A stretch of DNA of 64,000 nucleotides from Escherichia coli. GTDB taxonomy: Bacteria; Pseudomonadota; Gammaproteobacteria; Enterobacterales; Enterobacteriaceae. Below are positions 61,757 through 64,000 of this stretch, piece by piece; the first letter of the stretch is position 1, and each line of letters begins with the position of its first letter. The DNA is taken from NCBI RefSeq assembly GCF_022846255.1, contig NZ_AP025682.1; one strand, given 5' to 3'. The translations under genes were made by a program, and so were the position numbers. The notes under the pieces are model-generated. The model saw only the letters and a program-made list of their open reading frames with translations. It did not search any database and was not told the origin of the DNA.

Positions 61757-62527
61757 GTGCCTGGTTTGAAGATTACGCTTTTGCAGCAACCACTGGTGTG
61801 GATGGATGGTCCTGCCAACCTGCGCCATTTTGATCGTCAACTGGAAGGTATTACCGGGCGCGATGTGATCGTTCTACCGGAGATGTTTACCAGCGGCTTT
61901 GCCATGGAAGCGGCAGCTTCGTCGCTAGCACAAGATGACGTAGTGAACTGGATGACAGTCAAAGCGCAGCAGTGCAATGCGCTGATTGCAGGCAGTGTTG
62001 CATTACAAACGGAGTCTGGTTCGGTTAACCGCTTTTTGCTGGTTGAGCCGGGCGGCACGGTACATTTTTATGATAAGCGTCATCTGTTCCGCATGGCAGA
62101 TGAGCATCTACATTATAAAGCGGGCAATGCGCGAGTGATTGTGGAATGGCGCGGCTGGCGTATTTTGCCGCTGGTGTGCTACGACTTACGTTTTCCGGTG
62201 TGGTCGCGCAATCTCAACGATTATGACCTCGCCCTGTACGTCGCCAACTGGCCTGCTCCGCGCTCTCTACACTGGCAGGCATTGCTGACAGCCCGCGCGA
62301 TTGAGAATCAGGCGTATGTGGCGGGATGCAATCGCGTCGGCAGCGATGGCAACGGCTGCCATTATCGTGGTGACAGCCGGGTGATTAATCCGCAAGGCGA
62401 GATTATCGCTACTGCCGACGCGCATCAGGCAACGCGCATTGATGCGGAGCTGTCGATGATGGCATTGCGGGAATATAGAGAAAAGTTTCCGGCATGGCGG
62501 GATGCGGATGAGTTTAGGTTGTGGTGA
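61757..62527 (+). CDS. yafV: Nitrilase-superfamily omega-amidase YafV, about 256 aa
   Basis: GTG start 9 nt after an AAGGAG Shine-Dalgarno; carbon-nitrogen hydrolase catalytic Cys context (LPLVCYDLRFP). Confidence 0.88.
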   Translation: MPGLKITLLQQPLVWMDGPANLRHFDRQLEGITGRDVIVLPEMFTSGFAMEAAASSLAQDDVVNWMTVKAQQCNALIAGSVALQTESGSVNRFLLVEPGGTVHFYDKRHLFRMADEHLHYKAGNARVIVEWRGWRILPLVCYDLRFPVWSRNLNDYDLALYVANWPAPRSLHWQALLTARAIENQAYVAGCNRVGSDGNGCHYRGDSRVINPQGEIIATADAHQATRIDAELSMMALREYREKFPAWRDADEFRLW

Positions 62528-62529
62528 GT

Positions 62530-63765
62530 GGGTGTTGTGTTTAGGGCCGGGGAGAGTCAGGGTAAGACTACGAAAGCCCGCTCCCAGCAAGGACTGACGC
62601 CAGGTAGTTTCTGTCCATGGCTGCTTTTCGCATCTTACGTCTTAACCCTGCCTTGAATACATTATCATTCGTTAAAATATTAATAGCGATGTGCCGTATC
62701 CCTGAAAATAATTCTGCTGCATTTCCTCTTCTTATTTTGCAGTCGTCTTCATTCATTACCACGTCCAGACGCCAGTGCAGCTTATTCTCCACGTGCCAGT
62801 GGTTTCGGATTGCTGTGGCGAACTTCTCTGCGGTTAAATCAGCAGAACTGATATAATATCTGACCGTCATTTCTGGCTCTTTCTTTTGTTCTGCTATTAT
62901 TGACCGAAAGGAGACTGCCACGCATAATTTCTTCAGACCTTTCCATTCAAACATGAAATCAATAAGTTCATCAGGGACATCGCAAACAATGTGAAGACGG
63001 ATTTCTTCTCTGCCGTGACTTTTTTCACTAATTGCGTAACTGTCATGCTCTGGATTATTTAATTCTTTCAGTGGGAATTTTTCCTCAAAGGCTTTATTAA
63101 GCCGCCCCTGATTTCCTTTTACAGCGAATAAATAATCACCGCCCTGTTTTTGTATCTTCTCTGCGATATCTTTCTGGCAACCCATCGCATCAGTTGTGAT
63201 AATTTTTCCTTTAATATCCAACATGTTAAGAAGTTCATGGATAGCTGTGATCTCATTGGATTTCTCATCCGTCCTGATCTGTCCGATGACCAGACTGTGC
63301 ATTGTTGAGAACGCACTAATGACATGAATCGCTCCCCTGCGGCGACTCTTGTCATAAGAATGCCGGAGCGTTTTTCCATCAATTGCAATAACGTCTTTAT
63401 CATCTGAAGAATGGCAGTCACGCATCCAGTTAATAAAGCACTCGTGAAATTTTGCAGGACTGATACAGGATACAACTCTGGCAATGGTATCGTGAACAGG
63501 AATACCATTTTCAAAATCACCATATTGCTTCAAAAAATCGAGATGTGTTTCCCCAAAATCCTCTATATCTTCCCAGCCTTCTGCACCAGAAATAACGGCA
63601 CAAATAGTCAACAGTAGAATACCCGATAATTTATGTTCCACTTTCCAGGCTTGTCTGTAATCGGGGATAATAGAAATATGTTCCATCAATTTTTTAAGTT
63701 CCATTTTGTTCTACTTAATTATGTAAGGAGTATTTGATCATGTATACGCAATAAAAAACAGCTTC
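62530..63765 (-). mobile_element. ISAs1-family (H-repeat) insertion element, complete copy
   Basis: About 1.2-kb unit carrying an intact transposase ORF; its first ~240 bp (62537..62780) is repeated almost identically at 63770..64000, the start of a second tandem copy. Confidence 0.7.
62568..63704 (-). CDS. ISAs1-family transposase (H-repeat-associated protein, YhhI/YafF-like), 378 aa, intact
   Basis: Full-length ORF ([59 protein letters not shown]...). Confidence 0.85.
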
Positions 63766-63781
63766 AGGTAACAGGGCAAGA

Positions 63782-64000
63782 TTACGAAAGCCCGCTCCCC
63801 GCAAGGACTGACGCCAGATAGTTTCTGTCCATGGCTGCTTTTCGCATCTTACGTCTTAACCCTGCCTTGAATACCTTATCATTCGTCAAAATATTAATAG
63901 CGATGTGCCGTATCCCTGAAAATAATTCTGCTGCATTTCCTCTTCTTATTTTGCAGTCGTCTTCATTCATTACCACGTCCAGACGCCAGTGCAGCTTATT
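63782..64000 (-). CDS. Second ISAs1-family transposase gene, 3' part only (continues past window end)
   Basis: Encoded C-terminus differs by one residue from the last 64 aa of the first copy. Confidence 0.7.

Follow-up and report, generated by a model that had tools for sequence, protein, structure and literature searches.

Two directly oriented ISEc1 copies at the yafV border of an Escherichia coli Rhs/T6SS island, the second very probably joined by transposase inside the leader of the first

The window, i.e. the whole stretch of 64,000 nucleotides of Escherichia coli DNA analysed here, ends with two copies of the insertion sequence ISEc1 lying in direct orientation at the border between yafV and the Rhs/T6SS island, and the terminus of the second copy has very probably been joined by the ISEc1 transposase inside the leader of the first one. 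The joint looks transposase-made because copy 2 begins exactly at position 1 of the element and represents a variant that bears target-site duplications elsewhere. The pair is a real and ordinary feature, in which a known element (ISEc1/H-rpt) is present at a locus known to be variable, in a head-to-tail order that is familiar as well and is met again in numerous E. coli strains.

The resident copy next to yafV

The element at positions 62558–64000 is, judging from its sequence, ISEc1—the H-repeat (H-rpt) of Rhs elements—belonging to the ISAs1 family. The product encoded at positions 62568–63704 contains the domain DDE_Tnp_1_assoc (PF13808, E = 5.5e-33) in its N-terminal part, together with DDE_Tnp_1 (PF01609, E = 4.2e-30), and matches the ISAs1 transposase model NF033564 over the entire model (1–314 of 314) with 413.5 bits against a cut-off of 70; both the Pfam domains and the full-length model match thus bear out the ISAs1/H-repeat assignment proposed in the first-pass annotation. 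The protein agrees in 370–375 of its 378 residues (3–8 differences) with those described in RefSeq as "ISAs1-like element ISEc1 family transposase", the same 3–8 residues separating it from the transposases annotated as intact at the loci L001 (strain JNEC-KY177), L003 (E. coli 042), L004 (strain 0-4), L006 (strain WGI31CT) and L008. The IS DNA in the window is 97–99.5% identical to elements named ISEc1 by RefSeq, the name being taken from these RefSeq-annotated relatives and not from the ISfinder reference sequence. Comparison of the copies in L001, L003, L004 and L006–L010 gives the full ISEc1 a length of 1291 bp, with the start CAGGG(T/C/A)AAGA and the end ..GATCTTTCCCTG or ..TCTTTCCCTG, i.e. 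CAGGG...CCCTG overall, the terminal inverted repeat being imperfect (9 of the first 10 bases match).

The conserved gene flanking the IS is yafV, coding for 2-oxoglutaramate amidase (positions 61757–62527, plus strand), which was recognized from its CN_hydrolase domain and which matches the annotated yafV of JNEC-KY177, K-12 (L002) and 042 at 97.5–99%. Both ivy and yafV are located just upstream of the IS, so the position downstream of yafV was correctly recognized at first pass, the gene ending at 62527; the IS itself begins at 62558 and not at 62530. The junction between the yafV side and the element (..GGGGAGAGT followed by CAGGG) is common to the window, JNEC-KY177, K-12 and the other strains examined. 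The yafF of K-12, described in the first-pass annotation as a pseudogene, is indeed a remnant, consisting of the first 291 bp of the same IS (positions 1–291, 95.5–96.5% identity) at the same junction. It thus represents the same insertion as copy 1 of the window, with the difference that K-12 has kept only this part of the IS and is devoid of the Rhs/T6SS island beyond it. Since the junction is shared with K-12 yafF and JNEC-KY177, and since at least 80% of the segment 61700–64000 is present in one place in 3063 of 5426 complete genomes, copy 1 is an old resident and not a new arrival.

Copy 1 covers positions 62558–63771 on the minus strand and corresponds, by BLAST against the 1291-bp L001 copy, to IS positions 1–1214 of 1291. 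It is 99.5% identical to that copy, which is likewise adjacent to yafV; the collinear match stops at 63771, whereas the L001 copy runs on for 77 bp with the second terminal repeat. Copy 1 lacks these last 77 bp (TGAGGAATATC...TCTTTCCCTG) and, with them, the inverted repeat located upstream of the transposase gene. With regard to terminal inverted repeats, the one downstream of this gene is present at 62558–62569 (CAGGGTAAGACT, recognized from the ends of the full copies), and the other repeat of copy 1 is absent. Instead of a bounded element of ~1.3 kb with two inverted repeats, copy 1 therefore has its sole repeat at 62558, positions 1215–1291 being gone.

The transposase gene of copy 1 (62568–63704, minus strand) is uninterrupted, with 378 codons and a stop, as seen from the list of open reading frames, the domains and the match to the ISAs1 model; the full-length gene reported at first pass is therefore real. 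The description of copy 1 as one complete unit does not hold, the element being reduced to positions 1–1214 of 1291, without the far terminal inverted repeat and with a mutated Shine-Dalgarno sequence. Copy 1 is best described, on these sequence features, as ISEc1-derived and defective despite its open frame. Compared with the ISEc1/H-rpt of Rhs elements in general, the window shares the transposase, the CAGGG terminus and the relatives of 1291 bp, whose copies are also tied to Rhs loci; it differs by the loss of 77 bp and one terminal repeat from copy 1 and by the altered Shine-Dalgarno sequence, and its copy 2 is known from 229 bp.

The leader of copy 1 retains 67 bp (63705–63771, minus strand) and was examined by a promoter scan and a leader alignment. 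It contains a promoter-like arrangement TATACA-17-CATAAT from 63746 to 63718, which is a consensus match only; it should be noted that the promoter and terminator scans yielded a number of sites not above that obtained for shuffled sequence. The Shine-Dalgarno sequence at 63711–63716 reads AAGTAG as a result of a G-to-T change, whereas 10 of the 11 other copies in the leader alignment have AAGGAG; among the leader variants, AAGTAG of copy 1 is accompanied by AAGAAG in L010. A potential hairpin of 7 bp could be recognized in the ISEc1 leader, in which the Shine-Dalgarno AAGGAG would pair with CTCCTT lying upstream (63711–63730 in the window and 10012–10031 in L001), the anti-Shine-Dalgarno partner in the leader of copy 1 being at 63724–63730. 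By analogy, this hairpin looks like the translational occlusion found in other IS elements.

The second copy and the joint

Copy 2 occupies positions 63772–64000 on the minus strand, i.e. IS positions 1–229, where the window ends. It starts with the terminal repeat CAGGGCAAGATT and carries the last 72 codons and the stop of a second transposase gene (63782–64000, minus strand). The segments 62558–62786 and 63772–64000 form a direct repeat of 229 nucleotides with 97.4% identity and a spacing of 1214, which is not due to chance because the BLAST E-value is about 1e-110. A second near-identical unit in the same orientation, as claimed at first pass, is therefore present, and its distance of about 60 bp is confirmed, too, 67 bp separating the ATG of the first gene from the start of copy 2. 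The joint is situated at 63771/63772, where position 1214 of copy 1 meets position 1 of copy 2 with no spacer, as defined by the end of collinearity with L001 on the one side and the start of the repeat on the other one. The period of 1214 bp thus does not represent a repeat unit; it reflects how far copy 1 extends from its start before another IS terminus is attached.

The two copies differ at 6 of the 229 shared positions and each of them has its own perfect counterpart: copy 1 is identical (229/229) to the yafV-resident copy of L001, and copy 2 is identical (229/229) to L004b, to L004c, which is flanked by a target-site duplication, and to copy 2 of L006, its translated C-terminus being that of L004b. 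Over these 229 nucleotides copy 2 is, as far as the sequence goes, a common ISEc1 variant distinct from that of copy 1. The suggested simple tandem unit of ~1.2 kb has therefore to be abandoned, the period reflecting an IS terminus joined inside another copy and the six differences assigning the copies to different variants. By analogy with the abutting copies of L004, L005 and L006, all of which are full length, copy 2 can with good probability be expected to be full length as well.

The joint as such was met in none of the collections searched. A megablast search of 5426 complete E. coli genomes with a 120-bp probe spanning it returned matches only in two pieces and at differing spacings; the exact and degenerate joint patterns had 0 matches in the GTDB representative genomes, and the degenerate one had 0 matches in metagenome contigs. 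No record was found for the exact transposase protein of copy 1. The look-up of the exact YafV led to contigs of another layout (1–28 / c / full IS), and that of the exact FadE to loci resembling 042, FadE being too conserved to discriminate. The specific break point 1214/1 is new and of little consequence.

Mobility of ISEc1 and the origin of the pair

Short target-site duplications of 8–10 bp are typical of the ISAs1 family. Perfect duplications of 10 bp flank five full ISEc1 copies in other strains: L004c (L004 7198–8508; TTATAAACCC), L007a (L007 2835–4145; GCCTCCTACC), L008a (L008 2835–4145; CTAATAATAT), L008b (L008 4244–5554; GACACGCTAC) and L009a (L009 2835–4145; GTCAAATCCT). The copy L007a lies directly against the end of another copy, and its insertion site is unoccupied in L009. 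The 10-bp duplications indicate past transposition of ISEc1 in E. coli. The genome paper on E. coli W states that H-rpt has not been observed to transpose (PMC3032704); setting the 10-bp duplications and the recurrent joints at the IS terminus against this older view of the element is of modest value.

Joints between a truncated copy and position 1 of a full one have arisen independently at other loci. The RhsC locus of K-12 (ybfQ-ybfL-ybfD) has the layout 381–1267 / 1–1291 / 911–1291, WGI31CT (L006) at yafV has 3–1266 / 1–1291 / 771–1291, strain 0-4 (L004) has 1–1100 / 1–1291 and the loci L010–L017 at yafV have 1–28 / c / 1–1291. The triple H-rpt array at RhsC of K-12 resembles the window in being arranged head-to-tail and joined at the IS terminus, the upstream copy being cut short close to its far end; it differs in its locus and in the break (1267 versus 1214), and two of the three genes in it are pseudogenes or have been called inactive in K-12, whereas the frame of copy 1 in the window is open. 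WGI31CT shares with the window both the locus and the layout—yafV, a truncated resident copy and ISEc1 from its position 1, full in L006—but its break is at 1266 instead of 1214, its copy 1 has an internal stop and a third fragment (771–1291) follows. Tandems with a spacer exist, too: E. coli 042 contains two full ISEc1 copies 21 bp apart at the yafV locus, and in strain 0-4 tandem copies are separated by a spacer of 72 bp. One of the two copies of 042 is interrupted by a group II intron with the ltrA reverse transcriptase/maturase (L003 7157–10337), which lies between IS positions 204 and 205. Solo remnants of the ISEc1 terminus, 12–28 bp long, abut full copies in L001 (10150–10174), L004 (7136–7147) and L010 (10802–10829); they resemble scars left by deletions or by earlier IS-into-IS events.

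From the anatomy of the pair, the exact joint at the terminus, the identities of the variants and the behaviour of the relatives, the order of events and the enzymatic route might be reconstructed as follows. Copy 1 would have been present first, as the old resident at yafV, and the ISEc1 transposase would then have attached copy 2 by its terminus within the non-coding leader, at a distance of 77 bp from the end of copy 1. This could have occurred either by insertion of copy 2 into copy 1 or by an adjacent deletion mediated by the IS end—or an insertion followed by inter-copy recombination—in which copy 1 lost its end and whatever spacer had been present; the insertion on the one hand and the deletion/recombination routes on the other deserve roughly equal weight.

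The first of these routes, a simple nested insertion in which a canonical ISEc1 would have entered copy 1 in its leader, between positions 1214 and 1215, is plausible, with a probability somewhat short of even. It predicts a full copy 2 at 63772–65062, then the 10-bp CTTCAGGTAA and then the 77 bp of copy 1 (TGAGGAATATCT...TCTTTCCCTG). It agrees with the 10-bp target duplications made by ISEc1, with its landing beside other copies and with the duplications that accompany the variant of copy 2 elsewhere; the joint is, moreover, unique to the genome of the window and may be recent, leaving little time for a secondary rearrangement. Against it, the signature of a nested insertion was seen in none of the four comparable joints visible from both sides (L004, L005, L006 and L010). 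A simple insertion does not explain their break points on the left and right sides, and an adjacent deletion or an insertion with inter-copy recombination must therefore contribute. In the case of the window, action at the terminus of copy 2 would have deprived a spaced tandem of its spacer and copy 1 of its last 77 bp, for which the chance is nearly even. The independent left and right break points of the four joints are those predicted by this route, and tandems with short spacers from which it could start exist at the yafV locus in 042 (21 bp) and 0-4 (72 bp). Its prediction for the far side—copy 2 followed directly by DNA of the Rhs island or by another IS fragment—concerns sequence past 64000. 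For an element of the ISAs1 family, the formation of adjacent deletions would be a putative activity.

Neither a homologous origin of the pair nor a fault of the assembly offers a convincing alternative to the transposase-made joint. The direct orientation, the regular period of 1214 bp and the copy number varying from 1 to 3 among strains could suggest a 1.2-kb tandem duplication by unequal homologous recombination or replication slippage; such an event would be expected to leave near-identical units, whereas the two copies are distinct at 6 of 229 positions and each matches a variant of its own, and the joint, with 1214 beside 1, is out of register and lies exactly on the IS terminus. Owing to this out-of-register joint and the different variants, the homologous duplication, regarded as highly improbable, was rejected. 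Copies of IS elements are classic sites of misassembly, so a wrong join of two copies from elsewhere in the genome has to be considered, the more so as the joint is contained in no other sequence searched and the exact copy-1 protein has no record. Misjoins arise, however, within shared sequence, whereas the joint in the window links non-homologous positions at a precise terminus, and real genomes have the same kind of joint at other coordinates; an artefact is thus scarcely to be believed.

Two further arrangements were rejected. Active (IS)2 dimers, as known for IS21, IS30 and IS911, have two terminal repeats a few bp apart forming a reactive junction. They resemble the window in their head-to-tail order, but the relevant repeat of copy 1 has been deleted there; with the joint 1214/1 and the terminal repeat of copy 1 absent, the pair is not a reactive tandem dimer of this kind. 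A composite transposon was discarded as well, there being no DNA and no cargo between the two copies.

Consequences, possible end-targeting and the island

With one terminal repeat and a weak ribosome-binding site, copy 1 should be immobile on its own, as predicted from these two features, and it may serve as an example that an open transposase frame is not the same as a complete or mobile element. Transcripts of the frame could still start in its own leader or arrive by read-through out of copy 2, the stop of which lies 77 bp upstream. The two copies would be expected to act as substrates for RecA-dependent deletion or amplification, with loss of adjoining DNA or a change in copy number as the outcome, which is consistent with the presence of 1–3 copies among strains; direct repeats of ~1.2 kb can drive such changes at the locus, as illustrated by the yafF remnant of K-12.

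It is conceivable, though on balance unlikely, that ISEc1 favours insertion into existing ISEc1 ends or within a few hundred bp of them, i.e. end-targeting or local hopping. Insertions or joints that arose independently lie 0–255 bp from the end of another copy in L004, L005, L006, L007, L008, L009, L010 and the window. In 249 of 5426 complete genomes, an ISEc1 head lies within about 560 bp of an ISEc1 tail, as against roughly 0.05% of genomes expected for random placement of ~5 copies per genome, this being a rough estimate to be read with the phylogenetic non-independence of the genomes in mind and with the fact that recombination can also build arrays. Because the loci were selected for being tandem, end-targeting is suggested by them and cannot be established. 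If true, it would build tandem H-rpt arrays at the borders of Rhs/T6SS islands, and the joint in the window would be a fresh, strain-specific case.

As a marker, the pair shows where the variable Rhs/T6SS island begins next to yafV, and it has little import beyond annotation. The DNA beyond the IS is different in every strain inspected, comprising Rhs orphan toxin/immunity cassettes, vgrG and 1–3 IS copies, so the "plasticity zone" named at first pass has turned out to be an apt description. In the loci L001, L004, L006 and L010–L017, Rhs orphan/immunity genes and vgrG come after the IS at yafV; beyond the IS, the relatives also have DcrB-like genes and an Rhs core gene, the vgrG being that of a type VI secretion cluster. 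An Rhs element has been listed in the interval b0215–b0221 in the E. coli W genome paper (PMC3032704).

Concerning the part of the window on the other side of the IS, the segment 40000–58000 matches export and basal-body genes of the lateral-flagella type (flhA, fliF, fliI and a glycosyltransferase) beside fadE, a truncated version of this cluster being present in K-12. The fadE of the window shows ~97% DNA identity to that of K-12 and 042, and its protein is identical to a very common one. The dinJ-yafQ pair is not present between yafL and dpaA/yafK in the window, which is also the case in some other strains (L018). Over the 22.5 kb of 40000–62557, the best identity among the 5426 complete E. 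coli genomes is 97.7–97.9%; the source may be a poorly sampled or divergent Escherichia lineage, or the segment may represent a recombinant region.
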